Notes: generated by a model from the letters alone, not told the origin. DNA of 64,000 nt from Promethearchaeati archaeon SRVP18_Atabeyarchaeia-1 (GCA_037308085.1 CP147779.1:1728001-1792000); one strand, 5' to 3'; positions 4,185-60,458 are shown, counted from the first letter of the stretch. Made by a program: numbers and translations.

Positions 4185-4290
4185 GACATCGAGACGGAGG
4201 CTACGGATTCCTTTTTGACGCGATTAGCCTCTGTCAAAGTGCCCCGCCACTTCTCCGAGTGCGCAATATGAGGTGCTCGGCGTACTATCT
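4185..4290 (-). pseudogene. Decayed copy of the 3' end of the nitrilase gene (5321..6220)
   Basis: Reads VA..LTEANRVK...RLDV versus parent VAELDLTEVRRTR...RLEL, collinear with indels. Confidence 0.45.
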
Positions 4291-4301
4291 TTCAGCCCCT
4301 G

Positions 4302-5243
4302 CTACTTGACTATTCGGTTTTCGCCTTCGATCTTTCTTATATCGGTTATATCTTGCACTACCTCCATGGTTCCAAGATAGCGACCATCATGATCTCTTAC
4401 GGCGAAGTACCTAATGTAGACCTTTCTTCCCTTCACATCGATCCAAGATTCAGCGACATCCTTTTCCCCGCTCCTAAGATCGGCCAATAGCTGGTTAACG
4501 CTGCGAATGCTCTTCTCTGGGTGACATTTCTGGACTTTTCTGCCTATTGCGGCTCTTGGTCTCGCGAAGTACTTCTTCTCTTTCTCCTTGTTGAAGTATC
4601 TCAAGGTTTCGTCTGAGTCAATGAATGTTATCTCCATCGGAATCGTGTTGAGCATCGCGTCCAAGACCTCGACCGGGAGGTTTTTGACTAGCGGTTCAGA
4701 GGCTGTCTCCTTTTCAAGCTTCGCAGCCAGTTCAAGGTACTTGTCATGAAAACCTTCGCCCAGTGCTCCTTCTATCTCCTCGAAGCCGGTTACCAGCTTC
4801 CTAGCATCGGCTTCGCTTAGAATCCTCTTCCCCATGGGGTAAAGCGTGTCGTCCTCTTTCCAAACGTGATCCTTTACAAGTTCCGCAAGTTGTTTTGACT
4901 CGACCTGAACGGACTTCGTGTCGCCTTTGGCGAGTCTACCCTTGATGGTTCGAAGGAACTCGCGCTCCTTCTCGTGCTCTGAAAGCATCACTCCTATTGG
5001 TCCCTGCTCCTTAGGAATGCCTCGTAGTTCAAGTAGAGGGAATAGGACCTTCTCCTCCTTCGTGTTATGGCACTTATCCATGAAGTTCTCGAGGAACTCA
5101 AGGCACGTACTCGTTCTCTCCTGAGGACCGTTGCTTTTCTCCTCAGCACTGCTAGGCTTCCCTGCTGCCCCTACCAGCACGGTCACAACTCTCTCTATGA
5201 CTCTATGCTCTCCCATGAGCATCTCGTCCCAACGCTCCGTCAT
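4302..5243 (-). CDS. Hemerythrin (HHE) + PAS domain protein
   Basis: EH..IE, CHNTKEE..LFP, EH and HVWKED motifs; C-terminal PAS (IGRKVQKCHP, YLGTMEVVQDIT). Confidence 0.85.
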   Translation of the reverse strand: MTERWDEMLMGEHRVIERVVTVLVGAAGKPSSAEEKSNGPQERTSTCLEFLENFMDKCHNTKEEKVLFPLLELRGIPKEQGPIGVMLSEHEKEREFLRTIKGRLAKGDTKSVQVESKQLAELVKDHVWKEDDTLYPMGKRILSEADARKLVTGFEEIEGALGEGFHDKYLELAAKLEKETASEPLVKNLPVEVLDAMLNTIPMEITFIDSDETLRYFNKEKEKKYFARPRAAIGRKVQKCHPEKSIRSVNQLLADLRSGEKDVAESWIDVKGRKVYIRYFAVRDHDGRYLGTMEVVQDITDIRKIEGENRIVK

Positions 5244-5320
5244 TTCCCTTGTTCACCTCTTGCAGTGATTTGCATCGAAATAGTGTGAATAGAAAAATAA
5301 ACTTGTTGTTTGGGTCCACC

Positions 5321-6220
5321 TCAGCGGAGAGAGGTGCTCGCATTTCTATGGTGCGTTGCAAGCTTATCATAGAGTTCAAGCCGAACATCTTTCGACAACA
5401 TCGGCAGGAATGGCCTTGTTCTTCTTACTTCGGTGAGATCAAGTTCTGCAACTACCGAGTCCTCTTCGTCGTACTTGGCCTTGGCGACAACCGTTCCCGC
5501 CGGCGAAACCACGTGCGAACCTCCCCAGAAGACGAGGTTCTCCTCCACGCCTGCTAAGTTGCAGAGAATCACGAAGACGCCATTCTCTATTGCCCTAGCC
5601 TTGGTCAACACCTCAAAGAAGTCCTTCCGAGCGCTTGGCGAAGCAGTCGGATAGATCAGGATTTCCGCTCCCTTCAAAGCATAGAAGCGTGCCAGCTCCG
5701 GGAAGTAGATGTCATAGCATATGCCGAGCGCCATATCGCCCAGGCAAGTTGAGAAGACCTCGGCTTTGGATCCTGGTGTGAAGTACCGCTTTTCGTCAAA
5801 CACGCTATGCCCGGGAAGAAACCACTTTCTATACTTCCCGATCAATCCCTTCTTTCCGCCCATAAGCACAACGGAATTGTAGAGGGTTCCTTCAACACCT
5901 GAACAAGCTTCGGGCATACCGAAGACAACATGAACCTTCGAACCTGCAAGCAGGCTGGCCACTCTTGATGTGAAGGGTCCGGGAATCGGCTCTGCGATCT
6001 TGTAGAACGAATCGTAGCAAAGGTAACCTGTGGCGCTAAGCTCAGGAAAAACAACAAGGTTCACCTCTTCAGCTTTGGCCTTGTTTATGAACTTCCTGTA
6101 GACCTCAAAGTTGGCTTCCTTGTCTCCAACGGTTGAATTCATCTGCACGAGCATAACCCTAATAGAGCCAGGTGTCTCATTCTTTTCCCTGCATGTGTCG
6201 CCGTTTGCAGCTGCGGTCAA
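5321..6220 (-). CDS. Carbon-nitrogen hydrolase (nitrilase superfamily)
   Basis: E-K-C triad in FPEL, YRK and ICYD motifs. Confidence 0.9.
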   Translation of the reverse strand: MTAAANGDTCREKNETPGSIRVMLVQMNSTVGDKEANFEVYRKFINKAKAEEVNLVVFPELSATGYLCYDSFYKIAEPIPGPFTSRVASLLAGSKVHVVFGMPEACSGVEGTLYNSVVLMGGKKGLIGKYRKWFLPGHSVFDEKRYFTPGSKAEVFSTCLGDMALGICYDIYFPELARFYALKGAEILIYPTASPSARKDFFEVLTKARAIENGVFVILCNLAGVEENLVFWGGSHVVSPAGTVVAKAKYDEEDSVVAELDLTEVRRTRPFLPMLSKDVRLELYDKLATHHRNASTSLR

Positions 6221-6416
6221 TCCGGCTCACCTCGGCGCCTTTTACAGTGGATTACTACTCTCATGGGCGATATATCTTCTTTCTTCTTGGTCTGATCAAT
6301 CAAGAACTAATGAAACCAAGGGGTAACTATGCCGAGACACGTTTAGTCTTGGGTCCATTGTCAATGAGAAGACCGAGAAGTGAAGTCCTTCGGCGGGTTC
6401 TGGCTAAACAGTACAC

Positions 6417-7363: not shown

Positions 7364-8823
7364 GGTTCCGAACTGTTCGGATGGATTGTATAAATACGTA
7401 TAGTGACATATGAGCGGGCATGGAACAACTACTTCCTCCTGGGGAAGCATCCAGACTGCTCAAGGCCTGCCTCAACAAGACTAGTACAGACACAGCAAGA
7501 GTCACGGTGGCGACCCATCGAGAGAGACACCGGTGGATGGCGATGGAAGGCGAGAAGAGACCCCTCACAGTAAGGTACCAAGCCTCGGAGAGCGTCCTAA
7601 CATACCTCAGAGATATGAGAGACGCCTTAAAGGAGGCCCTCGCCCACGGATACGCCTTGGCGGAGACAAACCCAAACAAGGAAGTACCGAACCCAATAAT
7701 GCTGAGGAGGAAAGTGAAGCCCTGGTTCGACGCCCGTTACAGCTATGCGAAGCACCATGTCAACCCCCTCTGCAGGTCCGCCGTGGCTTTGCTCAGGTCG
7801 TACAGGAAACGCAACAAGAAGCTGGGCTTACCACGGATCAGCAGGCTCGCCATGAGGATCGACTCCGAGCTATTCCGCTTCAAGAAGAACGACGGTGGAG
7901 CAGCCAGCATCAGAGTAACCCTGCAGCCACTCCACTACGAGTACATCACCTTCACCCCAAGCCACAAGAAGTGGAGCATGTACAGCAGCGCGGGTAAGAT
8001 ATCCGAGATCCTACTGACCGACAGAAAGCTGTGCATCACCTTCGTTGTGGGGGCTGATAGTAGGAAGCCTCTCGGCAAGAGGCTGGTGGGCTCGGACCTC
8101 AATTTCCACAGTATGGACTCCACGGCGTTCGGCGGCGACGGGTTGGAGCCACCCCACACCGAGCCCCTTGGCAGGATAGTTCAAGTTCAGAACGACTTCT
8201 CGAGGAGGCGGAGGAGACTCCAGCTGCACGTCAAGAACCCAAAGAAGAGAGCAAGGAAGCTAACCGAGACACGCGGCAGGCAGAAGAACAGGGTCACGGA
8301 CGAGCTACACAAGCTTTCAACAAGAATCGTCCGGGAGAACCCTGGCACATCCTTCATCTTCGAGGACTTGGAGGGCATAAGAGGAAAGGCAGGGAAAAGA
8401 AAGACGACGAGCAGGAAGCTGAGGACCTATTTGAATCGCTGGCCCTACTGAGCGTTCCAGGGGATGGTGGAGTATAAGAGCCGATGTAGAACGCTTTACG
8501 TTGACCCAAGGGGGACCTCATCGAAGTGTCCCGTCTGCGGTGGAGTCTTGGAGCACCCAGCTTGGGCAGTAAGCAGGTGCAGGAAATGTGGCGTAGACTA
8601 CGACCGGGACAGGCTCGCAAGCTTGGCGATACTCCAGCGTGGCCTGCGCCTATGCGGCCAACCGTTTACGGTGAGTGCGGGCGCCTCTTGGCAGCCTTTG
8701 AGGAGTGAATACCTGTACACTCCCGGAGAGCCGAAGGCTGGGAGAGCAGGCGGGACCGAACGGGTTGCCAACGCACCGAATAGAAATGCGGACTTCTATG
8801 AATCTCCACATTTCCAGAAACGG
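7364..8823 (+). mobile_element. Non-autonomous IS607-family element (tnpA remnant plus tnpB)
   Basis: GG at both junctions (ATAAG-GG-TTCC ... GAAAC-GG-TGGATC; empty site ATAAG-GG-TGGATC); palindrome TCCGAAC-T-GTTCGGA at the left end; MEQLLPPGEASRLL at 7420 resembles the IS607 TnpA N-terminus. Confidence 0.8.
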
Positions 8824-10033: not shown

Positions 10034-10440
10034 ATATCTGTAAGATCATCGGGCGATAGACTCTAGCGTCGGCTAATCCACTTCTGCTCCTCGTCTAGTC
10101 TAGGAGTCGGGCAAAAAAACTGGATGTGAAGCTCGGAACTGCATAGGTGGCCGTGAGCCTAGATAGAGGGTCTGAGCCTTGAGGTAACATTCTTCTCCGG
10201 TCCGGCACGAATGCAGCAGTCAACCTTGCCATGAAGATTTCAAGCAGCAGGAGAATGTTCCTACAGGTTTGTATGGTACCTGCACCACCTTGACAGCATG
10301 CTTATGCTGGAACTCTGGAGAATCTTATTAGGTTCACAACTCGGAATGCTTTCTGAACTCACCATAGAAAGGTATTTTTGTTCTTTTTGTGCAGTATACT
10401 CGTGTAGCAAGATTCCGGATGAAAATGGGGGAGTAGTGTT

Positions 10441-28646: not shown

Positions 28647-29249
28647 AGCGACATGCAAGTTGTGAGCCCTAAATACGGCACCCTCTAACATCCTTTGGCC
28701 ATACTGTTAGAACGTGCCGCCAGTTGAGGCTGATCCCAGCTACACGCCTCAGACGTGCCCCATTCTCCTACTTTCCTCAGCTCAATAGCACTCATCTGTC
28801 CACGTCCGCACCAAAGGCATCTCTGTTTTTGTCTCTCTCCTCAAAGTCTAACATTATTTGACCTTTTTTCTTCATGCTTCGCTTGACTTCTAGGTCTTTG
28901 ATCTCTGCCTTAACTGCGTCGTACCTTTTCGGGGCAACATTGATTGATTCGACGTAGATTGCCTAGTCAGCGGGGCAATCAAAGTAACATACCAAAAGAA
29001 CAGAGTGGAGCGTCCCTGCCAGACCTGGGATCACGATCATGTGCCTAGGCGCATGCAAACTAGTTTCTTGGATTCCTTGTTTGTTCTGCGATTACATGAT
29101 CAACATGTTGAGCATTCCAGAAGTTCTAGCCCACCCGTGACTATGCGCCCACATTTCGATTTCCGGGAGGCCTCTTGCCAATCTCGGAAAATCCGGTATC
29201 GGTGATAGGGTCTAACAATCTTAAATACAGAGAACGGGAATTCTTCTTT

Positions 29250-29936
29250 ATGAGACTGGCCACATTGTTCAGCGGAGGTAAGGATTCGACATATTCGACA
29301 TACAGGGCAATGGACTCAGGCAATGAGATAGTTCTCTTGGTCACTATGGTACCTAAGAGACCAGATTCTTGGATGTTCCATCATCCATGTATTGAGTTGA
29401 CTAGACTGCAGGCAGAGTCCATTGGAATTGAACAACTCACGAGGGAAACGGGGGGTGAGAAGGAAAAGGAGTTGTCGGATTTGAGAAGTGCGCTGAATGA
29501 GATTAGGAATGAGATTGATGGGATTGTAACTGGTGCCGTTGCCAGTAATTATCAGAAATCTAGAATCGACAAGATCTGCGGTGAACTGGGGTTGGTTCAT
29601 GTTGCCCCCTTATGGGGGAGAGACGAAGAAGGAATCTTGCTTGACGAGGTCAATGTTGGTCTTGAGATTATCTTCACTGGTGTATATGCAGAAGGTCTTG
29701 ATGAGAAATGGCTCGGTAGGAAAATAGATAAGGTGTGCATTGAGGATCTGAAAAAGCTGAACCGAAAGTATGGGATTCACTTAACAGGAGAGGGAGGATG
29801 CTACGAGACTCTGGTATTGGATTGCCCCCTTTTCAGAAAGAGAATTCAGATCCAAGACAGCCATAAGATCTGGGAAAGGTCAAGTGGGTATTTGCAGATT
29901 GACGAAGCCAGACTAGTAGCTAAGAGCGTGTCTTAA
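29250..29936 (+). CDS. dph6: Diphthine--ammonia ligase family ATP pyrophosphatase
   Basis: FSGGKDS, SWMFH, SNYQ and GEGG.YETLV.D.PLF motifs. Confidence 0.9.
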   Translation: MRLATLFSGGKDSTYSTYRAMDSGNEIVLLVTMVPKRPDSWMFHHPCIELTRLQAESIGIEQLTRETGGEKEKELSDLRSALNEIRNEIDGIVTGAVASNYQKSRIDKICGELGLVHVAPLWGRDEEGILLDEVNVGLEIIFTGVYAEGLDEKWLGRKIDKVCIEDLKKLNRKYGIHLTGEGGCYETLVLDCPLFRKRIQIQDSHKIWERSSGYLQIDEARLVAKSVS

Positions 29937-31068
29937 TTCTGTAAACTCCAACCTCGGTTGATTCAATCAAACCACGTTTTTTGTACCTTGAAAGGTACGC
30001 ACTGGGCGACTTGTATCCCATCTCTCTCATTTTGCTAGCAAAGTCTTTTGTGAGGAAGATACCACCTCTCTGTAAATGCTTTATCACTTGATTGAAGCTA
30101 GACAGTTTCCTCCTTCTGCCGCGGACCTTCAACATTTTTGTCACTCTTGAATTCTTGTTCCTCGGCAGAAATCCTATTTCATGGGCAAACCGTGGCAAAT
30201 CCTCTGAGTATATGTTGAGCGACCATTTTGCGCTGATTTTCCCCCTTCTGAGAGACGTCTTGTTTCTTCTAATCGACTCTGGGGCCACGGTGCTCTGTAT
30301 TTTGAAATGATGAAGTAGAACTAAGTGTTCACCAAGTAAGGTTGGTGGAGGATTTGCGAGAACAAGATTTGCTAGTTTCGGATGTGTGCGCTTGAGTTGA
30401 CCGAATGTCACTTTCTGTCCTACGGATATGTCGAGTTCACGTGTAAAGTCAGAGACATCGGTGGTTCTAACTAGGTGTATATATCTCTTTGATTTTGAAT
30501 TACTGGGGCTGCCCTCTGCTTCGAAAGCAATTCTGAGATACTCCCTACAGAATTCCTTGTTATGAAGAATGAATCTTGGTATACGTTCGGGGATCGGCAA
30601 GAGATATCTTATGGCGCTGGGGAAACGGGTCCTGGGTACATTTCTCGATTTTGTCTTATGCATGAAATGCAAAAGCTGCTTTCCCAGCAGATTTCTTAAT
30701 GAAGAAGAGAGTATTCCATGGAACACTTCTTCGGGCACATGCAATCTGAATTCGGTTCGGAATGAACCCTCTGACAGCATTACAGCATAGATTCTGACAT
30801 AGTCTAGATTGTCAAGATTTAGTGGCAGTCTTATCCTCAACTTGCGAGTCTTCTGCCTGACCCCGCGTACTGGGATGTAGCTGATTGAGTCCTCAGTTTT
30901 CCGTCTGCCGCCAAGACCTAAGAGCTTCTTGACTGATATGGAACCGGTTTTCGATTGCAGACCTTCTGGCAGTCTATTGAAGCCGACAAGAATACTCGGT
31001 CCAAGATCCCAGTAGTGTGTTCGCCTGACGTTAGGCGCAGTATTGGCGTATTCTTCCCAGCTTTTCAT
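29920..31068 (-). CDS. Free-standing double-motif LAGLIDADG endonuclease-like protein with C-terminal winged helix
   Basis: IYAVMLSEGS and YLRIAFEAEGS helices, LPRFAHEIGF, very basic; no flanking intein or intron context. Confidence 0.7.
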   Translation of the reverse strand: MKSWEEYANTAPNVRRTHYWDLGPSILVGFNRLPEGLQSKTGSISVKKLLGLGGRRKTEDSISYIPVRGVRQKTRKLRIRLPLNLDNLDYVRIYAVMLSEGSFRTEFRLHVPEEVFHGILSSSLRNLLGKQLLHFMHKTKSRNVPRTRFPSAIRYLLPIPERIPRFILHNKEFCREYLRIAFEAEGSPSNSKSKRYIHLVRTTDVSDFTRELDISVGQKVTFGQLKRTHPKLANLVLANPPPTLLGEHLVLLHHFKIQSTVAPESIRRNKTSLRRGKISAKWSLNIYSEDLPRFAHEIGFLPRNKNSRVTKMLKVRGRRRKLSSFNQVIKHLQRGGIFLTKDFASKMREMGYKSPSAYLSRYKKRGLIESTEVGVYRIKTRS

Positions 31069-31309
31069 GTTATATCGTCTTTTTTGGACGCATATAAGGT
31101 AAACAACTGGTAAAAGCGAGCCATTCAAAATTGAAGGAGAGCGGCGATATTCAATACACTGAAAGACCGCAAAACCATTGGTGTGGTTGTGCTAGAGATC
31201 TTTGTCAATCACGCAGTGCAGCGATGAATGCCTAAGACGATTATATATGGCGAACGGAGTTGGGTTAGCCTGGATGAATTCAATGTGGCAGCAACCGAGA
31301 GTCTTATGG

Positions 31310-31465
31310 TCCGCGGGGGAATGTGAATTGGTTGTCTGTGATGGGCCTACTTTTAGGCGCAGAATAGAATTCCTGAAGAGCGAGAAGGTCTGGGACAGCA
31401 AGACGGGGAGCTGGTACTTGAAGGTGGATGAGGCTGAACTCGTTCAGAATAGGGGCACCAAGTAA
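31310..31465 (+). pseudogene. dph6: Orphan 3' end of a second dph6 allele
   Basis: GECELVVCDGPTFRRRIEFLKSEKVWDSKTGSWYLKVDEAELV versus parent GCYETLVLDCPLFRKRIQIQDSHKIWERSSGYLQIDEARLV. Confidence 0.85.
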
Positions 31466-31466
31466 C

Positions 31467-31958
31467 TCAGAGAAATGACTTGAGAGCTCCATAGGACATT
31501 GTCTCGTTGATTTCTTCCACAAATCTGATCCTCTCTGCGTCGCCAGATGCAAGGGACCCCTTCAATATTATGGGCTTGAAGTCTAGGTCTTCGGCGCCCC
31601 TGTATGTGGATAAGACGCAGTACTCTGCGCAGTACCCAGTCAGGATCAGAGTGTCAACGCCGAGTTTCCTTAGTTTTTCTGCGAGTCCTGTCTTCGTGAA
31701 AGCGTTGCCATAGGTCTTTGCGATACGCGTGTCCTGAGGATCAAGCTTAACACTGTCTGGAACATCAAAGCCCGGTTTGCCTGGTACGAGTCCTTCCTCT
31801 TCGCTCTTGTGTTGGATGACGAAGATTGGGAGATTCTTCTTTCTAAAAAGGTCAATCGCTGCATTTATGTACTCAATGGCTGAGTTTAGGGAGTCTGAGG
31901 AAGCTCGGCTCTTGAAGAACTCATTCTGAATGTCTATCACGAGTAGGGCTGGTTTCAT
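31467..31958 (-). CDS. Isochorismatase-family cysteine hydrolase
   Basis: ALLVIDIQNEF, K...NAF and G..AEYCVLST motifs. Confidence 0.9.
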   Translation of the reverse strand: MKPALLVIDIQNEFFKSRASSDSLNSAIEYINAAIDLFRKKNLPIFVIQHKSEEEGLVPGKPGFDVPDSVKLDPQDTRIAKTYGNAFTKTGLAEKLRKLGVDTLILTGYCAEYCVLSTYRGAEDLDFKPIILKGSLASGDAERIRFVEEINETMSYGALKSFL

Positions 31959-31996
31959 TTCTTGCTCTCCTTCTTCGCTAGGTGTAGGATGGTGCA

Positions 31997-33265
31997 CTAC
32001 TCATAGACCTTTTCGTCCTCCTTATCTGACTCAGCGGCGTCGTGTTCCACGTCCCTGACTTTCTCTTTTAGCTCGCTAAGCTCCCTGTAGTATTCGTGCT
32101 GAATTATCAGGTTCATTATCTGGCTTGTGCCTGTCCAGATCATTGCAAGCCTCGAATCTCTGAGAAGTCTTTCGATCGGGTAGACGTTTGTGTATCCGAT
32201 TCCCCCGAGTATCTGCATCGAGTTGTTTAGGATCTCCCATGCGGCTTCCGTTGCAAACTTCTTGGCCTCGGAGGCCATGCGGCGCTGGAGTCCCGAGTCT
32301 TTCCGCTCATCGACTGTGCGAGCTGCGGCGTAAACCAAGCCTCTTGCGGCATCAAGTAGGGTGATCGAGTCGGCAACCATGAAGCTGACTGCCTCGAACT
32401 TGTTTATTGGCTTTCCAAATGCCTTTCTTTTCTCGCTGTACCTTGCAGCTATTTCGATGGCTGCCCGGGCAGTGCCGAGCGCTCCTGCTGCGCTGGTCAT
32501 CCTCTCAGGAATCATCATTTGCCAGAAGACGTCACTGGCGGAGTTCTCCTTCCAGAGCAGGTTCTCCGCTGGAACCTTGACGTCGTCGAAAACGAGTCTC
32601 CCCGCTCCTCCTCCTCGAGTGCCCATAAGTCCATAGACGTAATCGGCCCTCACTCGGGGGCCTCTGTCTACTAGGAAGGCGCTCAGTGATGCGTGACCGG
32701 GTGCATCGCTCCGCGTTTTTGCATAGGCGAGGAAATAGTCGGCACCATCGGCTCCAACCACGAACCGTTTCTGTCCCTTCAGAATATAGTCTTCGCCATC
32801 CTTCTTCGCCACAGTTGTCGTTCCGAAGAAATCTGAGCCTCCTCGGGGCTCGGTTAGCGCCTCAGCGCAACATAGCTTCCCTTCGAGTGTGGGCTTGAGA
32901 TATTTCGCTTTCTGCTCATTAGTTCCAAATACATTTAGTGCCTCTCCAACGATTATTGGAAGTGAGAATAAGCATCCAAGCGACATTCCAAGGACCCCTA
33001 TTTCCTCCAACGCGAGCACGTCGTCTACCCACTTCAGACCTCTTCCACCGTATTTGGGAGGGAATCGGAGTCCAAGCAAGTTTCTCTTAGCTAGGTTCTG
33101 CACGTACTCCTTAGGGTATCTGACCTTATCGGCGTCCATGTCGATAAGTAAGCTTCTTGGGACCTCATTCCTGACAAAATCTCTGACTTCATCCCTGAGC
33201 CTTCTCTGCTCAGGCGTGAGAAGCGCATCGAACATTATATCGTTATCCTCCGCGAAATCGCTCAC
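31997..33265 (-). CDS. Acyl-CoA dehydrogenase
   Basis: [14 protein letters not shown] and ILGGIGY..ERLLRD motifs. Confidence 0.93.
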
Positions 33266-45075: not shown

Positions 45076-45135
45076 AGTCAAGCTAAGGTGAAGGGGTGAA
45101 GGCTGTCTGCTGATTCCTTCGCTCCAGCTTTTTTC

Positions 45136-45222
45136 TCGATCAATTGACCACCGCGGATCTCAAGTGCCTATTGTATTGTCATGAAAATCACAGTCGGGGT
45201 GGGCAGGGCTAAAGCTGACAAA
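45136..45222 (+). pseudogene. Decayed copy of the NAD-kinase gene 3' end
   Basis: GGATCTCAAGTGCCT...GTCATGAAAATCACAG...CTGACAAA versus parent GGACCTCGACAGTACCT...GTAATGACAGATTACAG...CTGACAAA. Confidence 0.5.
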
Positions 45223-45371
45223 TGGATCATGTGATCTTCGCAAAACGCGCGTGCCCCGTGGAAGCTAATGAGGAGAATATATATGCAGGATGTTACCTAA
45301 GTTTATCAACAACCGGACGCAGATACGGTCAGATCCTAGTGATATGAGTGAACTTGGAGGTTTGATTAAGC

Positions 45372-45557
45372 TTGGCAAGAAAGCCGAAGGAATTTGAGAC
45401 TAAAGAGTCCACCGGAACTCGAGTAGTCTGTCCAAAGTGCGGATCGATCCACGTAAGGAGCAGTGATGAGAAAGGCAAGGTTATGACTTACATGGGCGGC
45501 ATGCCCGTCTACAAGAAGCTCTGGGTATGCAAGGATTGTGGAAACCAGTGGGGATAG
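45372..45557 (+). CDS. Small Zn-ribbon protein
   Basis: CPKCG...PVYKK..CKDCG..W; GGAGG upstream. Confidence 0.8.
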   Translation: MARKPKEFETKESTGTRVVCPKCGSIHVRSSDEKGKVMTYMGGMPVYKKLWVCKDCGNQWG

Positions 45558-45563
45558 ATCTTG

Positions 45564-45770
45564 ATACTCCCCTCTTGGGGAAGTGAGAATTCACGCTTGG
45601 GAAATTGATCAGGCCATGATGCATGATCTTTGACGCACGTGCACACCGAGAAGATTTTCCGAATTCCGAGTGAACTGGAGTCGTGTCCAACCTTCTGATT
45701 CTCAGCATTGTGGAGTTACAATAGCTCCAATACTCTTTCTTTTGATTAGCCTCCCGACACGGGATAAGAG
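45564..45770 (+). pseudogene. Decayed copy of the 3' half of membrane protein gene 44617..45075
   Basis: GTGAGAATTCACGCTTGGGAAATTGATC..CATGATG versus GTGAGACTGACGACAGGCAAATTCCTCATCATGATG; later WSRVQ/WGLVQ and ILFLLIS/ILFAILA are collinear. Confidence 0.65.
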
Positions 45771-45815
45771 AGCTATTTCTGGATTCATCTACGCAAGTAG
45801 CGCAGTAAGCTATTT

Positions 45816-48954: not shown

Positions 48955-49192
48955 GAATCTACAATTTCACAGTAGCATTGACATGCGCTATGCTTGCTCC
49001 AAGCAAATGACCCTGAAAGTAAGTTGGATGAAATCAGGACGTTGAGTTGTTGCGGAGAGTTGAGAAAGAGAATGATATAAGGATGTTGGTGCCGTCATTG
49101 AGAAGAGTCACTCTGGTGCCATATGATTATATACTCAAACGACAAAAGGTTTTCGCGAATTGAGACCCGCATGTTGTTGAAGGTGCCGCTTC

Positions 49193-49927
49193 TTGAATGT
49201 CCATGAGAAGTCTATCAGAGCGAGCGAATACTTGACCTACGTGATTGGCAACATCATTTTGATGGTTGTCCTCTTTTACATCCTGCTTAATAATCTCCTC
49301 TATGAATGGACGGGGCAGCTGTACCCGGTTACCTCTGGCTTTCGCTTACTCCTAGGAGGTTTAGATGACGCGATCCCATTTGTCCCCGAGATGGTGATCT
49401 TCTACCAATACCTGTTTTACGGGATCGTGATTCTGACGATGCTCTTCTTTGCCTTTGTTGAATACAGGAAAGGCTACGCCCTAAGTTGGTCCTTGGTGAT
49501 AGTCAGCGCCATCGCAATAATCATCTACATTGTCTTCCCAGTTTCAACCTATGAGTGGCGAGTAGCTCTCACCCCACACTTAGACTTGGGCAACTTCTGG
49601 CAAGCTCAAGTATACAGTATTTACACCATTGACACTCCTTTCAATTGCTTCCCCAGCTTGCACGCCGCGGTGTCCACAATCTGCTTCTACACATGGTATC
49701 AATATAGCAAAGTGCGACCCAGCCGGGCAACCAAGATAGCTGCAATCGTTGCATTTGTAATTTCAGCAGGCGTTATTCTCTCTACCCTGTTCATCAAGCA
49801 ACATTATATTGTAGATGAGATTGCTGGAATCTTGCTCGCCTGGGTGATAGGCAGAACCATCTTCAACTATCTGTGGAAAGCTTTCAAGTTGACTGGATCT
49901 CGGGTGGATAAGCGCAAGGTGAAGTGA
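49193..49927 (+). CDS. PAP2-superfamily (Aur1/IPC-synthase-like) membrane protein
   Basis: FPSLHAA and QHYIVD motifs. Confidence 0.85.
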   Translation: MNVHEKSIRASEYLTYVIGNIILMVVLFYILLNNLLYEWTGQLYPVTSGFRLLLGGLDDAIPFVPEMVIFYQYLFYGIVILTMLFFAFVEYRKGYALSWSLVIVSAIAIIIYIVFPVSTYEWRVALTPHLDLGNFWQAQVYSIYTIDTPFNCFPSLHAAVSTICFYTWYQYSKVRPSRATKIAAIVAFVISAGVILSTLFIKQHYIVDEIAGILLAWVIGRTIFNYLWKAFKLTGSRVDKRKVK

Positions 49928-50159
49928 GGCACCCCATTATGGGTGTCTCTAATTCGTTTTCTGTTTCTATACCCACCTTGCGAGCTATAGGAACGCAAGG
50001 GGGAAAACATGACGTATCCTTCAAAGGTGTCTGGGTTGCGTAAATTGCAATCAGACTTCGGGTTGTGCTCAGAACGCGGGATAGAATATAAGGGCGATTG
50101 CGAATGTTTGTTTACCCCCGCAGTTTTCCTTGATAAGCATCATTTAGGAGTGTGGAGAC

Positions 50160-50819
50160 TTGAGCGAAGCTGCCGGCAGAATGATAGCAGGAAATATCGT
50201 TCAGGGAATAAAGAAGGCAGGCGCGGTCCTCGGTCCAGGGTACGTGCAACTCGCGGCAAGATATTCGACCGCTTTCTTTGCCAAACTGATCGGCCAGACG
50301 CCACCCGAGGTCAAGGACATAGATGAGGCTCTTGAGTACGCAATTGGGAACATGAAGATCTTCATGAATGGCTATGAAGCATTCGCATATGGCGCCCTCA
50401 AGGCTGAGAGTACCATCCAAGGAGCCACTGGATCCGTTATCAGAATGGTAGCTAAGACCTCGACGGCTCACACGTTTGAGGAGGCTGGTTTCGGCAAGGC
50501 ACTAGGAAAGGCAAGTACTGCTCCAGAGGCCTTAAGGAAGTACTACTCTTCGCTTGTCAAGCTCGGCTCGATGAGGGAACAGGACCTAAAGTTTACCGAT
50601 TCTGGCGCAGAGCTGAAGTTGGATATCGACAATTGCCCGTTCGCTGATGCATGTCTGGCCGCAGTCGCTGAAGGCATTCCAAAGATCCTAGGCGGACACG
50701 AGTGTGTGAGGATTCTAGCTTTTGCAACAATAATCGAAGTCATGACGGGAAGGCAACAAGACTACAAGCTGACCAGACTGAGTCCGCCCAAGTGTGGCGG
50801 CACAATCCTCCAAGCGTAA
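50160..50819 (+). CDS. Hypothetical protein with four-Cys V4R-like domain; paralog of 6417..7070
   Basis: KAES..QGA.G and CPFADAC...C...DY...PPKC shared with the paralog. Confidence 0.7.
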   Translation: MSEAAGRMIAGNIVQGIKKAGAVLGPGYVQLAARYSTAFFAKLIGQTPPEVKDIDEALEYAIGNMKIFMNGYEAFAYGALKAESTIQGATGSVIRMVAKTSTAHTFEEAGFGKALGKASTAPEALRKYYSSLVKLGSMREQDLKFTDSGAELKLDIDNCPFADACLAAVAEGIPKILGGHECVRILAFATIIEVMTGRQQDYKLTRLSPPKCGGTILQA

Positions 50820-50861
50820 GAGATCCCAACACAGGATATCTCATTTCTTCGCCGTCGGATT

Positions 50862-51134
50862 CTACACTAGCTGGGATCGTTGCAGGCGATCCGTCCCCAT
50901 GACCTGAAGTACCTTATTCACGCCATTGACCCCGTCGACTACTGGCAGTGCTATCTTCCACCGCAGTTCACTCGGCAGCCTCGAGAAGTTTGCCGTCTGG
51001 CATTTTCGCCGTCAACTGCCCCTACTGTAGCCGCATACTGCTACACCTCGTGGTCTCCCATGACTCCCCCGATCTGATGTGAAATACCGCGGCGTTGGCT
51101 CGTCGAACCTTCCTCTCCAGGTCCAGCATTGATC
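50862..51134 (-). pseudogene. guaA: Decayed copy of the guaA 3' end
   Basis: Exact 18-bp (51050..51067 = 52081..52098) and 15-bp (50983..50997 = 52013..52027) matches at 67 versus 68 bp spacing; reads GVMGDH..*QY..V.AV..E.A / TANFSRLP...IAL.VVD.V.GVNKVL. Confidence 0.9.
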
Positions 51135-51141
51135 TACTCCA

Positions 51142-51759
51142 TCAGACGGTTTTCATCATTACGGTGCTTGGTCCGATGACAAGTGCGGTTGAATGCGCTT
51201 TCAGAATATCGAACATCACCTTAAGTGCGTCGGCGCTTCCCCTTTCGGCGACGGTTTGCTGGTCATACGCGCATATCGCCGTCATGGGGAGATCCAGCGT
51301 TCTGTGAAGCGCTCTCTCATACTGGATAAGTTCTTCCGTCATATTGTTCTCGAAGAAGCATGCCATCTCTCCAGTCACCCTCAAGCCCTTGAAACCCCTT
51401 TTCTTTGAGTCTGCCAGCAAGTCCTTCCACATCTGCAAGGTTCTCGAGGGGTCAAACTTTCCGTCGATTATGTACCAGTCCTTGTAGTCCATTACTTTGA
51501 GGGCACCCTTCTGTTCATACTTGTCGACATCTATGCCGAACTTGCGCATTGCTCTTTTGCTCTCTTCGGGTGATTGCTGGCTAGCCACGTAGGCGGCCGC
51601 TTCTTTTCTTTCCAGGCCAGCTTTCAGGTATGTGAAGAGAACCTCGTTCTTGTCTTCGGTTCTTGTATAGAACAGTACTACGTGGTCTCTGGGTTTCATC
51701 TTCTTCACGAATTCAAGAACCTGGTTTCTCATGAACTCTGCGGTGACGTCCTTTTCCAA
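51142..51759 (-). CDS. Stand-alone MEDS domain protein
   Basis: DHVVLFY, GLRVTGEM and YE...AICAYD motifs. Confidence 0.88.
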   Translation of the reverse strand: MEKDVTAEFMRNQVLEFVKKMKPRDHVVLFYTRTEDKNEVLFTYLKAGLERKEAAAYVASQQSPEESKRAMRKFGIDVDKYEQKGALKVMDYKDWYIIDGKFDPSRTLQMWKDLLADSKKRGFKGLRVTGEMACFFENNMTEELIQYERALHRTLDLPMTAICAYDQQTVAERGSADALKVMFDILKAHSTALVIGPSTVMMKTV

Positions 51760-51891
51760 TTCAGATTCCCAGTTATCTATCTCTTCAGGGTTTTATAAAT
51801 CTCTGGCAGACCGTGCCGTTACAGAATGCCCATTTGAGTGGTATATAAGAAGATTATACATTGCGAACAGGGTTCCCCAGAGCTAGTTGTT

Positions 51892-53469
51892 CTATTCCAG
51901 CTCGATTGTCGCTGGTGGTTTGTCGGTGATGTCATAGAGGATCCTGTTGACACCCTTGACTTCATCTACTATTCTCAAGGCGATCCGTTCAAGCAGATCC
52001 CAAGGTAGCTTTGAGAAGTTTGCCGTCATTGCGTCCTCGCTTTCAACCGCCCTTACAACCACCGAATACTGGTATGTTCTGTGGTCTCCCATGACTCCGA
52101 CCGTCTTAACTGGGAGTATTGCGGCGAACGCTTGCCAGAGCTTCCTCTCGAGTCCAGCCTTCTTGATTTCCTCTCTGACAATTGCGTCTGCGCCACGCAG
52201 AATCTCCAGCTTCTCTTTCGTGACTTCGCCTGGGCATCTAACGGCAAGTCCTGGCCCTGGGAAAGGCTGGCGCCACGTAATCTCGTCCGGTATGCCCAGC
52301 TTCTCAGCGACAACTCGTACTTCGTCCTTGTAGAGGTCCCTAATAGGCTCGACAAGCTTCAGGTGCATCCACTCAGGGAGCACGACGTTGTGATGACTCT
52401 TGATACGTGATGACGTCTTAGTGGCTTGGGCGCTCTCAATCCTGTCAGGATAGATCGTGCCTTGTCCAAGGAATTCGAAGCCGCCATACTTCTCCTTAAG
52501 CTCCTCAGCCTTACTCTCAAAAACTTCGATGAAGGCTGATCCTATTATTCTCCTCTTTTGCTCCGAATCCTCGACCCCTTTCAGCTTCGACAAGAAGAGT
52601 TCGCTCGAATCTAGGAAGTAGAAATTCTTGAATCTAAGATGCTTGGTGAAAGTGCCCAGCACCTGTTCTGCTTCACCTTCCCTCAGCATCCCAGTGTCGA
52701 CGAATATGCAGTGCAGGTTGTCTCCGATCGCTCTATGAATTAGCTCGGCAGCCACTGTCGAGTCGACCCCTCCGCTGACGCCCATGACGACTCTTCCTTC
52801 GCCGACCTGATCTTTGACTTGCTTCACGGTTGCTTGAATGAAATCTAGGGGGTTCCATGTGGGGGCAAGCTTGCATATGTTCAGAACAAAGTTACTCAGT
52901 ATCTTGATACCATTCACGGTGTGCCGAACCTCTGGGTGGAACTGAACCGAGTAAATGCCCATTGCCTTCGAACGGAAAGCCGCGTTCGGGCAGATCTCGG
53001 TAGAGGCTATTCTCTCAAACCCTGGAGGCAGTGATACAACTTGGTCTCCGTGGCTCATCCACACTGTCTCTTCCTTATTCAAGCCCTTTAGAAGGTCGCT
53101 CCGGTCATTCACAGTGAGCTTCACTTTGCCGTATTCTCTGCTACTGGTTGGTTCGACTTTTCCGCCGAACAGGTGAGCTATTAGCTGGTGACCGTAGCAT
53201 ATTCCGAGTACGTGGATCCCTCGCTTAGTAAGGGACTCAATGAGACTTCTGCTCATTGTCGGAGCCCCTTCATCGTACACGCTACTAGGTCCGCCTGAAA
53301 GTATTACTCCACCTAACCATTTCTCCCCTAGTAGTTTCTCGTCAACGACGTCACTGTACGCAATCAATTCGGAGTAGGCTCCCACTTCCCGGATCCGTCT
53401 TGTTATCAGGTGAGCATATTGGCCGCCGAAATCGATGACGAGTATAAACTTCCTCTCTTCACTTTCCAT
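51892..53469 (-). CDS. guaA: Glutamine-hydrolysing GMP synthase (fused form)
   Basis: GICYGHQ, QFHPE, SGGVDS, IKSHHN and KPPATIE motifs. Confidence 0.97.
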   Translation of the reverse strand: MESEERKFILVIDFGGQYAHLITRRIREVGAYSELIAYSDVVDEKLLGEKWLGGVILSGGPSSVYDEGAPTMSRSLIESLTKRGIHVLGICYGHQLIAHLFGGKVEPTSSREYGKVKLTVNDRSDLLKGLNKEETVWMSHGDQVVSLPPGFERIASTEICPNAAFRSKAMGIYSVQFHPEVRHTVNGIKILSNFVLNICKLAPTWNPLDFIQATVKQVKDQVGEGRVVMGVSGGVDSTVAAELIHRAIGDNLHCIFVDTGMLREGEAEQVLGTFTKHLRFKNFYFLDSSELFLSKLKGVEDSEQKRRIIGSAFIEVFESKAEELKEKYGGFEFLGQGTIYPDRIESAQATKTSSRIKSHHNVVLPEWMHLKLVEPIRDLYKDEVRVVAEKLGIPDEITWRQPFPGPGLAVRCPGEVTKEKLEILRGADAIVREEIKKAGLERKLWQAFAAILPVKTVGVMGDHRTYQYSVVVRAVESEDAMTANFSKLPWDLLERIALRIVDEVKGVNRILYDITDKPPATIELE

Positions 53470-53539
53470 GCCTGCGCCGCCTCGGAGGATAGTGATCCAG
53501 ACTGGGCTGACCGTGAATCTCAACGCAAATGAATAGATG

Positions 53540-53662
53540 CTCTACCTTCTTAACGTTTTTCGGGGCAAGGTAGTACTGAAACAGGAGGAAATAGCGGCAA
53601 AAGCAGGATTCCTCGTCTAAGTTCTTGCCGCAACTTGCCCACTGCTTGGACAGAGCTTCTCG
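53540..53662 (-). pseudogene. Decayed copy of the amidohydrolase 3' end
   Basis: EAL..AVG..KNLDEE...LAPKNVKKV versus parent DALKAIGIKNFTPKE..ILGENAKKL. Confidence 0.45.
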
Positions 53663-53664
53663 CA

Positions 53665-56246: not shown

Positions 56247-57500
56247 CTATTGGCAAACAAACTCACAGTAGTCGTCGCCTTTTGCCACGCACTTTGTCTC
56301 AATGCACCTCACTGTCCTAGCGAGCAGCAATTCCATTACGCCTGCTATGAGACCCGCAAGATGCGGATTCATGGGTTTGTCGGAACTTCGGATCAGTGAA
56401 CAGAGTGCATTCCTTACCCGAAAAATCGAGCGGCCGTTGTCGAAGACCAGCAACTCCGCCAGCCCCATCCCCGAAGCTGATATGTAGCCAGCCAAGAGCT
56501 CAAGTACCCTCCTCGGATCCAGGTCGTCTAGTCTTAGGTTCATCGAAGAAAGCAGTTCCTTAATATTCTGTGCCCCGGCAGATTTTGCCCTATTGTACAT
56601 TTCTTCTGTTGCAGACTCGTAGGTGCCCTGGTCCATGAACTCCTCCATCAGTCTCGCCATGTTCTTCGCGTTGTTAAGGGTGAATCTTATGCCCATCAGA
56701 CTTATTGTTCCATCAGGATTATGCTTCAACTGGTTTCTCAGTGTACGGGTCAACTCAGCAGAAGCTGTCACTAGAGTGGGCTTGCCGTCGATGATATCGT
56801 AGGGAACCTCATTCAACTGGAAATCGGGAATCGGGGACTGCTTGACGCGAAGGAACCTCTGATACCTACCCTTGACCTCTCTAACAGTCAATACGATTAT
56901 CGAGTCACCCAGATCCTCAATGGCGGTGGCGATGCTTTCATCAAACATTTTTGGGTTGAAAAGCGCTAGGGTCACCATCCTATCTACCTTGATCAGTGTC
57001 CTAGCCATTCTACTTATTTTGTAGGCGGATTCGAACTTGTAGTTGGCCAGTGCCGAAGATGCCGAATATACGAGCATTCTCATGCCCTCGAATTTTCCGG
57101 ACTCAATTTGGCTCTTAGATATCTCCGCCAAGTCGTAGTATAGGCGGAGAAGCGAATTTGGGTCGCTAAGGCTCTTGCTTCTAAGTATTGGGCCTCGCCG
57201 CTCAGGGTCATATTCCCCCTCGCTGTAGAGGTCCGCTATGATCATGGAGCCAGATTCGAGGGCATTCTTCATGTCGACGCCGAGATCCGTTAGCTTTGCT
57301 ATGAAAGTACTGGGTGGCAGATCATACAGCAATATCGAACAGACGTCCCGGTGGCGCAATCCTTCATTTATGAATGCTACTATAAAAGAAAGCTCTTGAG
57401 TTCCACGCTCAACTTCTAGGTAAGTGGTAGAGCGATTGGTCAGTCCACCGCCCAGCAGCCGATCAACCTCAGGAACCCCGAAGCTCACGACATCAGACAT
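56247..57500 (-). CDS. KaiC/RAD55-like ATPase (degenerate Walker A) fused to V4R
   Basis: FGVPEVDRLLGGG; Walker A replaced by VERGTQEL; C-terminal ETKCVAKGDDYCEF. Confidence 0.85.
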   Translation of the reverse strand: MSDVVSFGVPEVDRLLGGGLTNRSTTYLEVERGTQELSFIVAFINEGLRHRDVCSILLYDLPPSTFIAKLTDLGVDMKNALESGSMIIADLYSEGEYDPERRGPILRSKSLSDPNSLLRLYYDLAEISKSQIESGKFEGMRMLVYSASSALANYKFESAYKISRMARTLIKVDRMVTLALFNPKMFDESIATAIEDLGDSIIVLTVREVKGRYQRFLRVKQSPIPDFQLNEVPYDIIDGKPTLVTASAELTRTLRNQLKHNPDGTISLMGIRFTLNNAKNMARLMEEFMDQGTYESATEEMYNRAKSAGAQNIKELLSSMNLRLDDLDPRRVLELLAGYISASGMGLAELLVFDNGRSIFRVRNALCSLIRSSDKPMNPHLAGLIAGVMELLLARTVRCIETKCVAKGDDYCEFVCQ

Positions 57501-58621: not shown

Positions 58622-58666
58622 GATATTTTCTCTCCTCCTGATGCTTCTGGCTGTTCTCGCTACTCT

Positions 58667-60223
58667 CTACTTTTTGACCAAATACTCCTCACGCATTACC
58701 CGTTTAAGGATCTTCCCTGCTATATTGCGAGGGAAGTCCTCGCTGACAATGACTCTGCTTACGCGCTGATATTTCGCCGCCACGTTTTCGTTAATCCACT
58801 TTAGGAGAGATTCCTCAGTTGTGCTTCCAGGTTGGTTGAGGACAACTGCAGCAACTGGGGTTTCCCCCCATTTTGGATCGGGAATGCCGAAGACTGCGAC
58901 TTCTCTCACATCAGGATGTCTTGCAATGACCTCCTCGATGTCCCTGGGGTAGACTTTCACTCCTCCTGAATCTATCATATCCTTCTTCCGATCAACGAGA
59001 TATAGGTATCCATCGCTATCGACGTAGCCTACGTCCCCGGTGAACAACCAACCGTCTCTGATAGCCTGTTTGGTCTGGTCGGGACGCTTGTAATATCCTG
59101 GCATGAGTACAGGACCGCGGCCAATGATCTCGCCTATCTTCCCTGTTGGAACATCCTTTCCATCGTCGTCCACAATCCGCATCTGGAGCAATGGCCCTGG
59201 GGTTCCAACGGAGCTTGGCTTTCTTGGATAGTCATATTTGTCAAGAACTGTCACAAACCCTTCAGTCAGGCCGTAGAGCTCGTAGAATCGGCTAGGTAGG
59301 CGCTTATTCAATTCCTGCTTATGCTCCATCAATAGGGGAGCCCCGACGTTGCATATCATTTCAATTGATCGTAGCGCTTTGAGCGAGAACTTGGGTGAGC
59401 GGAGAATAGCAATGATCTGCGCAGGAACTACCATCATGTGGGTCACTTTTTCCTGTCTCACGGTTTCTATGAACAGATCTGGACTGAACGCGGGAAGAAG
59501 AACGAAAGTACAACCCATGTAGAGGGCGGGCATCAAAGTCACAAAAGTAGCGTTAAATACGATTGAACCGGAGTGTAGCATTACTGATTCTGGCGTCATC
59601 CTGAAGACTGGGGGAAAAGTCAAGGCGTACATTAGCCGGATGTAGTGGGTGTGGACTATTCCTTTGGGCAGTCCTGTCGTCCCACTGCTGTAGATGATGT
59701 TGAAAGGATCATTCTCGCTGATTTCTATACCTTGAGGTTCCTGATCGCTGGCGTCAGCCTTCACATCGTTATAGTACCTGTACCCAGGCATGTCTGGTGA
59801 ATCGACAACCAGGTAGCCATCATCCATTATACCGGTAAGCTCGGGTCTGATCTCTTCAACAATCTTAGCGAGAATAGAGTTGGTGATTATCACCTTTGAA
59901 TCAGAGTCTTCGAGAAGAGACTTTAACCCCTTTGGCAGAAGCATTGTGCTAAGTGGCACTACAACTGCCCCTGTTTTTGCCGCAGCCCAGTACGTTTCAA
60001 GCAATTCAACGCAGTTTGTGAGCAGAGTCGCTACTTTATCGCCTTTCTTGATCCCCATGCCAAGCAGGGCATTTGCAGCGCGGTTCACTTCCGCATTGAA
60101 TTGCCTGTAATTCAAACGCTTTTCCTTGAAGACGACTGCCGTGTGGCTAGGTCGATAGCGAGCGTGTCGGCTCAGAATCATTCCAATATTGATGGGATGG
60201 CCACGATCAATTGTACCAGACAT
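58667..60223 (-). CDS. Acyl-CoA synthetase (AMP-forming)
   Basis: YSSGTTGLPKG, YGLTE, TGD and DRKKD motifs. Confidence 0.93.
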   Translation of the reverse strand: MSGTIDRGHPINIGMILSRHARYRPSHTAVVFKEKRLNYRQFNAEVNRAANALLGMGIKKGDKVATLLTNCVELLETYWAAAKTGAVVVPLSTMLLPKGLKSLLEDSDSKVIITNSILAKIVEEIRPELTGIMDDGYLVVDSPDMPGYRYYNDVKADASDQEPQGIEISENDPFNIIYSSGTTGLPKGIVHTHYIRLMYALTFPPVFRMTPESVMLHSGSIVFNATFVTLMPALYMGCTFVLLPAFSPDLFIETVRQEKVTHMMVVPAQIIAILRSPKFSLKALRSIEMICNVGAPLLMEHKQELNKRLPSRFYELYGLTEGFVTVLDKYDYPRKPSSVGTPGPLLQMRIVDDDGKDVPTGKIGEIIGRGPVLMPGYYKRPDQTKQAIRDGWLFTGDVGYVDSDGYLYLVDRKKDMIDSGGVKVYPRDIEEVIARHPDVREVAVFGIPDPKWGETPVAAVVLNQPGSTTEESLLKWINENVAAKYQRVSRVIVSEDFPRNIAGKILKRVMREEYLVKK

Positions 60224-60390
60224 GGATCTCAGCCCCCTGTGTTGGGCGCTCCGTTGCCCAAGTTATCTTTTTCCTTGAGGTCTTGCTCAAGGCGTCGCTC
60301 CCCTTCTCGCCATCGGCTGCATTAATCTGGAAGCGCGAGTGAGTATGAGTTGCGTGAAAGGTTAGCTTCTGCTGAACATGATCTCCATCT

Positions 60391-60458
60391 TCAAATATAT
60401 AAGAGCTTAAGAATGTTGAAGTTGGAGGCGCGCTTCCTGAAGTATTTGCATCTTCGAA
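60391..60458 (-). pseudogene. Decayed copy of the ferritin-like gene 3' end
   Basis: ILQE.....TF..LLYI* versus parent ILEEEEDHHDTFSTLLEEI*. Confidence 0.45.

Follow-up and report, generated by a model that had tools for sequence, protein, structure and literature searches.

The stretch analyzed here, in the following called the window, comprises 64,000 nucleotides of the genome of Promethearchaeati archaeon SRVP18_Atabeyarchaeia-1 (G000:C1:1728001-1792000, where G000 denotes the genome under study, closed at 2.81 Mb with 49.6% GC). Within it, the diphthine-ammonia ligase gene dph6 and the GMP synthase gene guaA are each followed by one further gene and, beyond that, by a decayed dph6 or guaA 3' end, respectively, referred to as a tail scar. 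An earlier reading of the nucleotide sequence alone, in the following the original prediction, had taken fourteen such scars in the window as the footprint of a dense and systematic process adding new genes behind almost any resident gene. The present analysis, for which the two closest genomes, G001 and G002, were used as relatives for comparison, leads to another picture: very probably, the dph6 structure stems from a selfish endonuclease cassette and the guaA structure from one homeologous insertion, with no systematic process behind the two.

Anatomy of the dph6 locus

The following features, listed by window coordinates, make up the dph6 locus.

28951..29031, plus strand: internal dph6 fragment, profile positions 86-112; 21.0 bits with the hidden Markov model (HMM), tblastn E 1e-6 with G001
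29250..29936, plus strand: live dph6, diphthine-ammonia ligase (PF01902, Pfam E 6e-76); a xenologue with the recoded motif GEGGCYET
29920..31068, minus strand: free-standing predicted homing endonuclease gene, 382 amino acids (aa), with two LAGLIDADG-like motifs and a C-terminal winged helix-turn-helix (wHTH)
31313..31456, plus strand: displaced native dph6 tail (scar), profile positions 180-223; 37.9 bits with the native-type dph6 HMM
31467..31997, minus strand: isochorismatase-family gene, the synteny anchor for the native dph6 3' end

The endonuclease gene of G000 runs towards dph6, the 3' ends of the two genes overlapping by 17 nt. Beyond it, the scar begins at the GE(Y)E motif and ends at the expected native gene end beside the isochorismatase gene, with the dph6 sequences of G001 and G002 as best matches (50-51% identity, E 4e-14 and 7e-13) and a KTGS insertion common to them. 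Both relatives possess an intact native dph6 at the syntenic place without such an endonuclease there, and in G002 the gene is directly followed by the isochorismatase gene and an acyl-CoA dehydrogenase gene. Hence, the check that in a relative without the cargo the host gene should adjoin the post-scar gene turned out positive. The live dph6 of G000, however, is only 43-45% identical to those of G001 and G002, whereas guaA reaches 81-83% between the same genomes. Higher values, 80% and 62%, are reached with the dph6 genes that accompany endonuclease homologues in two metagenome contigs (L046 and L044, respectively).

The fragment upstream of the live gene is, judged by its matches, a remnant of the native dph6 body. 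Projecting from its last profile position (112) places native position 179 at about 29232, just 5' of the live ATG (29250). We read this arrangement as a block of about 2.1 kb, consisting of a foreign dph6 and the endonuclease gene, that would sit inside the native dph6 at position 179/180. The homology-anchored tail swap originally envisaged for dph6 is at odds with these findings, as the replacement comprises the whole gene and native-type sequence is left on the 5' side, too. Moreover, the supposed gene order with all parts on one strand does not apply, the LAGLIDADG open reading frame (ORF) being encoded on the opposite strand.

A probable dph6 cassette in diverse archaea

Homologues of the endonuclease (35-80% identity) are encoded in assemblies labeled as Njordarchaeota, Aenigmatarchaeota, Nanoarchaeota, Woesearchaeota, Thermoplasmatales and Methanosarcinales. 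They were found by an alignment-based contig scan, while a single-sequence pattern scan gave none. In total, 24 other loci were compared, namely six metagenome contigs and 18 loci from named genomes of Aenigmatarchaeota, Nanoarchaeota, Woesearchaeota, Thermoplasmatales and Methanosarcinales (L047 and L084 being one record). Without exception (6/6 contigs and 18/18 named-genome loci), the homologue is convergent with a full-length dph6, either abutting it or overlapping by 15-41 nt. Besides G000, a dph6 tail scar beyond the endonuclease gene is present in 11 of these loci, i.e., in half of the named-genome loci (9/18) as well as in L044 and L049. The scars start at the G-E-[YF]-E-[TS] residues (profile positions 178-183, with one weak case at 192) and are preceded by unrelated sequence.

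At the same place, the live alleles linked to an endonuclease are recoded, with 19 out of 21 deviating from (G)EGGE[YF]ET. FEGGEAE[TS] is found in 13 alleles, and GEGGCYE[TS], GEGGETES, FEGG[HQ]ADT and AEGGYWDS also occur, so that E[YF]E is replaced by EAE, CYE, ETE, HAD, QAD or YWD. The motif GEGGE[YF]ET is kept in nine of ten scars inspected (the tenth reads PAES) and in all six endonuclease-free relatives. A fixed scar start together with recoded linked alleles is the signature of a site-specific homing endonuclease whose linked allele is presumably resistant. From this we infer that the dph6 element is a site-specific homing endonuclease cassette, which would cleave unmodified alleles, and that the recoded motif would confer resistance to cleavage. 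The assumption of a process working without dedicated machinery does not hold at dph6, where a site-specific LAGLIDADG family lies beside the gene and the insertion point is fixed at the GEGGEYET codons.

In the course of events proposed here, a selfish cassette, comprising the LAGLIDADG and wHTH endonuclease gene with its travelling dph6 sequence, would interrupt the native dph6 at the GEGGEYET codons. The enzyme would cut endonuclease-free alleles at this site, and repair would then copy in the endonuclease gene along with the recoded, cleavage-resistant dph6 tail. In G000, the donor was possibly too diverged for homologous repair, so that the whole donor gene would have entered and the native body and native tail would have been left to decay. 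The literature searched contains no description of a homing endonuclease at dph6, nor of LAGLIDADG genes that are free-standing in Asgard archaea or elsewhere among archaea, and the word 'LAGLIDADG' does not occur in the account of the mobile elements of this genome (PMC11529989).

The guaA locus

The second structure consists of the following features.

51892..53523, minus strand: intact guaA (fused GMP synthase) with the Pfam domains GATase, NAD_synthase and GMP_synt_C; 81-83% identical to G001/G002
51889..52179, minus strand: live guaA tail, i.e., the last ~96 codons (GMP_synt_C domain), the segment that is present twice as found by DNA alignment to the scar
51142..51759, minus strand: MEDS-domain sensor gene (cargo; Pfam MEDS E 9e-40), the last codons of which run into the scar
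50859..51147, minus strand: displaced, decayed guaA tail (scar) from codon ~447 to the old stop, found by protein and DNA alignment
50160..50819, plus strand: gene without Pfam match between scar and PAP2; V4R-like by cysteine motifs only, with no tool support
49193..49927, plus strand: PAP2-family gene, the direct convergent neighbor of guaA in G002 (empty site)

Scar and live tail align over ~290 nt at 65% identity with seven indels, and the old stop codon is still aligned. The spacer between guaA and MEDS has 132 nt, and the distance from the scar stop to the next gene is only ~40 nt. In the empty site of G002, guaA is directly convergent with PAP2; hence, also at this locus the relative without cargo shows the host gene adjoining the post-scar neighbor. 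In G001, guaA is followed by MEDS, co-linear at 73% nucleotide identity and with a different downstream gene; its MEDS orthologue is 77.6% identical to that of G000. The MEDS proteins end with ...KTV in G000 and ...KALGD in G001, and the last two codons plus stop of the G000 gene align to guaA codons 447-449. Since MEDS is clipped at the scar junction, the right-hand joint is illegitimate and not a cassette boundary or attachment (att) site. Identical att repeats were not found at the ends of guaA tail and scar; the longest exact run (18 nt) is away from the boundaries, within the codons for the conserved GVMGDH. The gene at 50160-50819 was found by tblastn among guaA loci in G000 only and is not located between guaA and PAP2 in G002. 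The stretch from the V4R-like gene across scar and MEDS into guaA is spanned by contigs of three other metagenome runs, so that the structure is not a misassembly, a possibility that the original prediction had left to be checked. Contigs of four runs covering 49000-53600 do not show any joint skipping the cargo, which is not evidence that cargo-free variants are absent.

Identity between scar and live tail amounts to 72, 82 and 52% at codon positions 1, 2 and 3, respectively. For a duplicate formed in situ with the given second-position distance (~0.21), about 70% third-position identity is expected, while the observed 52% (49/94) is ~3.8 standard errors lower, calculated for 94 sites of a local alignment and under a Jukes-Cantor clock. 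Third positions being too diverged for an in-situ duplicate, the two sequences suggest that scar and live tail were previously diverged, functional guaA alleles. As the scar is closer to the G000 tail than to the tails of G001 or G002, the donor would be a fairly close relative. According to the proposed scenario, DNA of a moderately diverged relative already bearing MEDS behind guaA would have recombined into the lineage. The left joint would have been made by homology within guaA and the right one illegitimately, connecting the end of MEDS, short of its stop by a few codons, to guaA codon ~447, and the resident tail would have been pushed downstream and then decayed. Accordingly, the single-crossover or one-ended-invasion model put forward for all scars is retained for guaA as a one-off event, with which empty site, illegitimate joint and tail divergence are consistent, but extends neither to dph6 nor to genes in general.

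Two other explanations of the guaA scar are both unlikely and to about the same degree. Tandem duplication of the segment from guaA codon 447 to near the MEDS end, with a later loss of the second MEDS, would create exactly the observed junction between the MEDS 3' end and guaA codon ~447 and agrees with the scar-free guaA-MEDS arrangement of G001 as well as with the scar being closest to the tail of G000 itself. However, the ~40 nt left between scar stop and next gene do not show any trace of a second spacer or MEDS, the third codon positions are too diverged for a duplicate having 82% second-position identity, and the arrangement in G002 is cargo-free. Alternatively, the scar might be the remnant of an endonuclease cassette or an integrase-type element that captured MEDS and from which the mobility gene was deleted. 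Such cassettes appear to be active in G000 at dph6, acyl-CoA dehydrogenase, M28 peptidase, dodecin and an ATPase subunit, and the two guaA tails do look like diverged alleles. Against this stand the lack of room for a nuclease or integrase ORF (only the 132-nt spacer on one side and MEDS directly merging into the scar on the other), a junction which truncates the cargo and is not at a highly conserved motif, and the absence of a nuclease gene from the guaA locus of G001 as well. In agreement with the original prediction, no integrase was found, with neither a tyrosine nor a serine recombinase domain among the window genes scanned.

Independently of the scar, a KaiC-V4R paralogue (46-47% identical to window 56247-57500) lies between guaA and a hemerythrin gene in G001 and G002. 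It is missing at the corresponding place in G000 (53524-53664), where no scar was detected in comparison with locus L101 of G002 and locus L103 of G001; hence, sensor-gene content changes here without leaving tails.

Fold of the dph6-linked endonuclease

The G000 endonuclease has the motifs AVMLSEGS (also given as LYALMxSEGS) and IAFEAEGS, the acidic residues of which (E100 and E185) are invariant in 26 homologues. Its AlphaFold2 model (predicted local distance difference test 89, predicted template modeling (TM) score 0.84) shows the pseudo-dimeric alpha-beta-beta-alpha-beta-beta-alpha fold. In a Foldseek search, the endonuclease domains of TliVMA, PI-SceI and PI-PfuI (intein) as well as I-DmoI were matched at probability 1.0 (target TM 0.56-0.63), and WhiA is also among the fold matches. 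The fold is followed by a C-terminal winged helix with a weak match to AbiEi_4. A sequence-profile search of the PDB with the endonuclease gave nothing useful. Because of the endonuclease fold of the model and the invariant acidic residues, the assignment as a putatively active nuclease is supported.

WhiA (PDB 3hyi) is a transcription factor which resembles the G000 protein in having a double LAGLIDADG fold and then a C-terminal helix-turn-helix (HTH). From this identical domain order, from WhiA being among the fold matches and from the co-variation of endonuclease identity with dph6 body identity one could conclude that the protein is a domesticated, vertically inherited WhiA-like regulator of dph6 and that the fragments are unrelated duplications. 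We consider this very improbable. The catalytic acidic residues are absent from WhiA, which is passed on vertically, whereas the dph6 family keeps the acidic residues of both motifs invariant and shows insertion footprints. Moreover, its distribution is patchy, with the gene absent from G001 and G002 and present in DPANN, Thermoplasmatales and Methanosarcinales; the scars start at the same point across phyla; the target motif is recoded in the linked alleles; and the dph6 of G000 is foreign.

Weight of the joint interpretation

Several observations count against the combination of a cassette at dph6 and a homeologous insertion at guaA. As for dph6, no significant match was obtained when searching for the remaining parts of the native gene (profile positions 1-85 and 113-179), and it is from geometry only that we infer a simple insertion at one point. 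Identity among the endonucleases follows that of the dph6 bodies (rho 0.60) no less closely than that of the tails (rho 0.43), and therefore 'tail only' and 'whole gene' are inseparable as the usual mobile unit. With LAGLIDADG_3 (PF14528), the G000 endonuclease scores 16 bits and, thus, stays below the cutoff of 22.5; in the family, this domain appears at E <1 in 11 of 26 members (best 0.004). Non-nuclease relatives of the WhiA kind, as mentioned, have the same domain order. With respect to guaA, apart from the small number of sites and the clock behind the codon-position argument, the MEDS-bearing G001 does not show a detectable guaA scar in the ~620 nt available. A breakpoint in the live guaA is not visible in sliding-window identity, with synonymous sites being saturated among G000, G001 and G002, and the guaA phylogeny is concordant with that of the neighboring genes, G001 and G002 being closer here to each other than to G000.

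Scars in the window and in the whole genome

The gene names on which the original prediction was built (nitrilase, hemerythrin-PAS, KaiC-V4R, NAD kinase, MTase, Gfo, MEDS and dph6) are correct according to Pfam. The gene set used here for testing it was derived by dicodon score (2433 genes, 82.7% of G000 covered). For each of the fourteen claims, the gene was compared with the claimed scar by protein Smith-Waterman alignment in the three same-strand frames, with scores ranked versus all G000 proteins of similar length, and by DNA Smith-Waterman alignment judged versus 200 shuffles. Significance was established for guaA/MEDS and dph6/LAGLIDADG. Against 50820-51141, guaA (51892-53523, minus) attained a protein score of 88 (rank 1/624) and a DNA z of 26; against 31129-31466, dph6 (29175-29936, plus) attained 98 (rank 1/1033). 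In contrast, the remaining twelve claimed scars are at chance level, with protein ranks of 175 to 1077 out of about 700-1100 and DNA z values of at most 2.3. When considering all 43 pairs of the class 'one gene between, same strand' in the window, top scores were 98 and 88, followed by 39, and maximum scores of background and control classes were 34-43.

Genome-wide, this class (1539 pairs) has a mean score of 27.28, compared to 26.6-27.6 in 17 control classes, demonstrating no bulk shift. In the upper tail (score >=60), 7 of the 1539 pairs are found versus 0-6 in the control classes. Hence, the enrichment over control pairings anticipated from the prediction did not materialize in bulk; what stands out are about seven pairs in the genome and two of the 43 in the window. 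With only two of fourteen claims significant and no bulk shift, the dense, systematic architecture at almost any gene is absent, and so is the general gene-accretion process, claimed to be nuclease-free and new; the window contains two genuine, unrelated structures of gene, cargo and old tail.

A search for partial-gene matches within 20 kb of each gene revealed about ten genes in the 2.8 Mb of G000 with C-terminal, same-strand, downstream and non-coding fragments. Among these are the genes of an A-type ATPase subunit, a CCG-domain protein, acyl-CoA dehydrogenase, a C5 DNA methylase, M28 peptidase, dodecin, dph6, guaA and possibly TldD. The latter is not counted as secure, as its scar is weak (score 77) and may reflect the adjoining PmbA/TldD paralogue. 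N-terminal fragments upstream were found for about three genes. Consequently, the predicted bias towards C-terminal, same-strand, downstream scars is real but sparse, while the accompanying statement that 5'-end scars are lacking is contradicted by the internal fragment upstream of the live dph6 and the N-terminal fragments upstream of three other genes.

Between host gene and scar, the acyl-CoA dehydrogenase, M28 peptidase and dodecin loci contain ORFs of the LAGLIDADG_3 and/or multi-HTH type, which run convergently to the host gene. M28 peptidase and dodecin (G000:C1:1621930-1624507 and 1635427-1637508) are each faced by a LAGLIDADG_3 and a multi-HTH ORF on the opposite strand, beyond which a duplicate of the last 30-50 codons of the host gene is located (60-80% identity). 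At G000:C1:823593-829979, two convergent tail scars occur in one spacer, namely the acyl-CoA dehydrogenase tail (826268-826392) beyond a LAGLIDADG-like ORF and a CCG-protein tail of 160 codons (826562-827007, 72-83% identity) beyond a serpin gene. Downstream of the A-type ATPase subunit gene (G000:C1:596267-606536), the last ~30-40 codons are stacked thrice, at 5.0, 6.3 and 8.7 kb and with 63-78% identity. The DNA in between encodes a DpnII restriction-modification pair, a SocA/Panacea-like gene, a PKD protein and a 513-aa ORF matching the profile of the dph6 endonuclease, so that this locus gives the impression of tail replacement having taken place repeatedly, accompanied by the capture of defence genes. 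Half or more of the genuine G000 tail scars flank nuclease genes, and besides dph6 at least five of them adjoin LAGLIDADG/HTH genes. The C-terminal bias in G000 is explained mainly by tail-replacing nuclease cassettes. The least probable of all explanations considered is the general model itself, in which virtually any resident gene could receive donor DNA made up of a homologous 3' end and a new gene, with most scars now too decayed to align, since, in spite of the guaA case fitting it and of a gene content around guaA that differs among relatives mostly in sensor genes (e.g., the KaiC-V4R paralogue), the twelve other scars rank like random proteins, also at the DNA level, the predicted class has the same mean as the controls, and so many real scars lie beside nuclease genes.

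Relation to known systems

A mobile endonuclease ORF carrying a replacement C-terminus reportedly exists at atp6 of Allomyces. In the mitochondria of Endoconidiophora resinifera, partial C-terminal duplications of cob and atp6 are flanked by LAGLIDADG and GIY-YIG ORFs (PMC6279837). These mitochondrial mobile ORFs are the closest analogue to the dph6 cassette, with an endonuclease gene between an intact host gene and a decaying 3'-end duplicate, and in both systems the host gene is functional via a carried, divergent tail. The dph6 case differs in concerning an archaeal chromosome and the gene of a cytosolic enzyme, in having the endonuclease gene on the other strand, where it shares 15-41 nt with the new tail and encodes a wHTH, and in the replacement of the whole dph6 in G000 instead of the tail alone. 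Intronless homing by free-standing phage endonucleases, such as T4 mobE, Seg proteins and F-CphI (PMC2790892, PMC6083498), likewise involves a free-standing endonuclease gene beside a resistant target allele, cleavage of sensitive alleles and co-conversion of flanks. In contrast to the dph6 cassette, however, it relies on HNH, GIY-YIG and EndoVII-like nucleases, and a displaced tail does not normally result, donor and recipient being similar enough for two-sided homologous repair.

Integrase-type elements restore the 3' end of their target, as is the case for e14 in icd and for elements in tRNA genes, and, thus, also produce the order of gene, inserted DNA and displaced original 3' end. Unlike these elements, neither guaA nor dph6 is accompanied by an integrase, the cargo being MEDS only or endonuclease plus dph6 only; an identical att core is missing; and the duplicates are just 65% (guaA) and, at the amino-acid level, about 46% (dph6) identical over the whole length. 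Finally, homology-facilitated illegitimate recombination has been described in naturally transformable bacteria and is not known from archaea. The guaA event resembles it in that one end appears homology-anchored and the other is joined illegitimately inside the last codons of the cargo. It differs in the illegitimate joint lying upstream of the resident tail, by which, if this pathway applies, the tail would have been duplicated and not deleted.

Implications

Comparison among archaea gives good support for the dph6 cassette representing a homing endonuclease family in archaeal chromosomes outside introns and inteins. This family targets a conserved enzyme motif and would, when moving from one phylum to another, bring along a substitute for the disrupted gene, offering a concrete mechanism for the xenologous replacement of a housekeeping gene in an Asgard archaeon. 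Such cassettes would also explain a class of unannotated 'intergenic' gene fragments, and the guaA event would be a rare datable case in which one-sided homologous recombination brought in a sensor gene. Tentatively, and with a little less than even confidence, we propose that tail-replacing homing endonuclease cassettes form a general class of archaeal chromosomal mobile element not described in the literature searched. The dph6 family, spanning DPANN, Asgard, Thermoplasmatales and Methanosarcinales, inserting between GEGG and EYET and carrying either a recoded tail or a whole gene, would be one member, and at least five genes might be targeted in G000. Together with occasional homeologous insertions as at guaA, these cassettes could, at a low rate, bring in foreign alleles and captured accessory genes and pile them up behind conserved genes.

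Additional features of window and genome

The genes of ~400 aa with nearby tail fragments were also considered as TnpB/IS605 copies, an assignment rejected after Pfam analysis, which identified mostly ordinary genes (ATPase subunit, acyl-CoA dehydrogenase, CCG protein, M28 peptidase, Dcm and TldD) and TnpB only in g1705 and at window 7420-8790. The latter region (plus strand) contains a TnpB-like gene with OrfB_IS605 and Cas12f-like TNB domains, the frame of which is broken by a stop at ~8452; its C-terminal piece of 113 aa is 76-87% identical to at least four other G000 copies. The N-termini (residues ~15-72) of two proteins of ~420-437 aa encoded elsewhere in G000 have short matches on the same strand at 10174-10312 (E 5e-5 to 1e-4). 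Between a 191-aa and a 470-aa gene, a region of 740 nt (45076-45815) is without a confident gene call and may harbor small genes or RNA; G002 has a comparable gap of about 930 nt at the syntenic place. Outside the window, the 11-mer AATTAACTTAT occurs exactly twice in G000 (C1:2590417 and 2601284), 10,867 bp apart, which fits both the att sequence and the size published for the Yucahu-i element of 'Atabeyarchaeum deiterrae-1' (PMC11529989).

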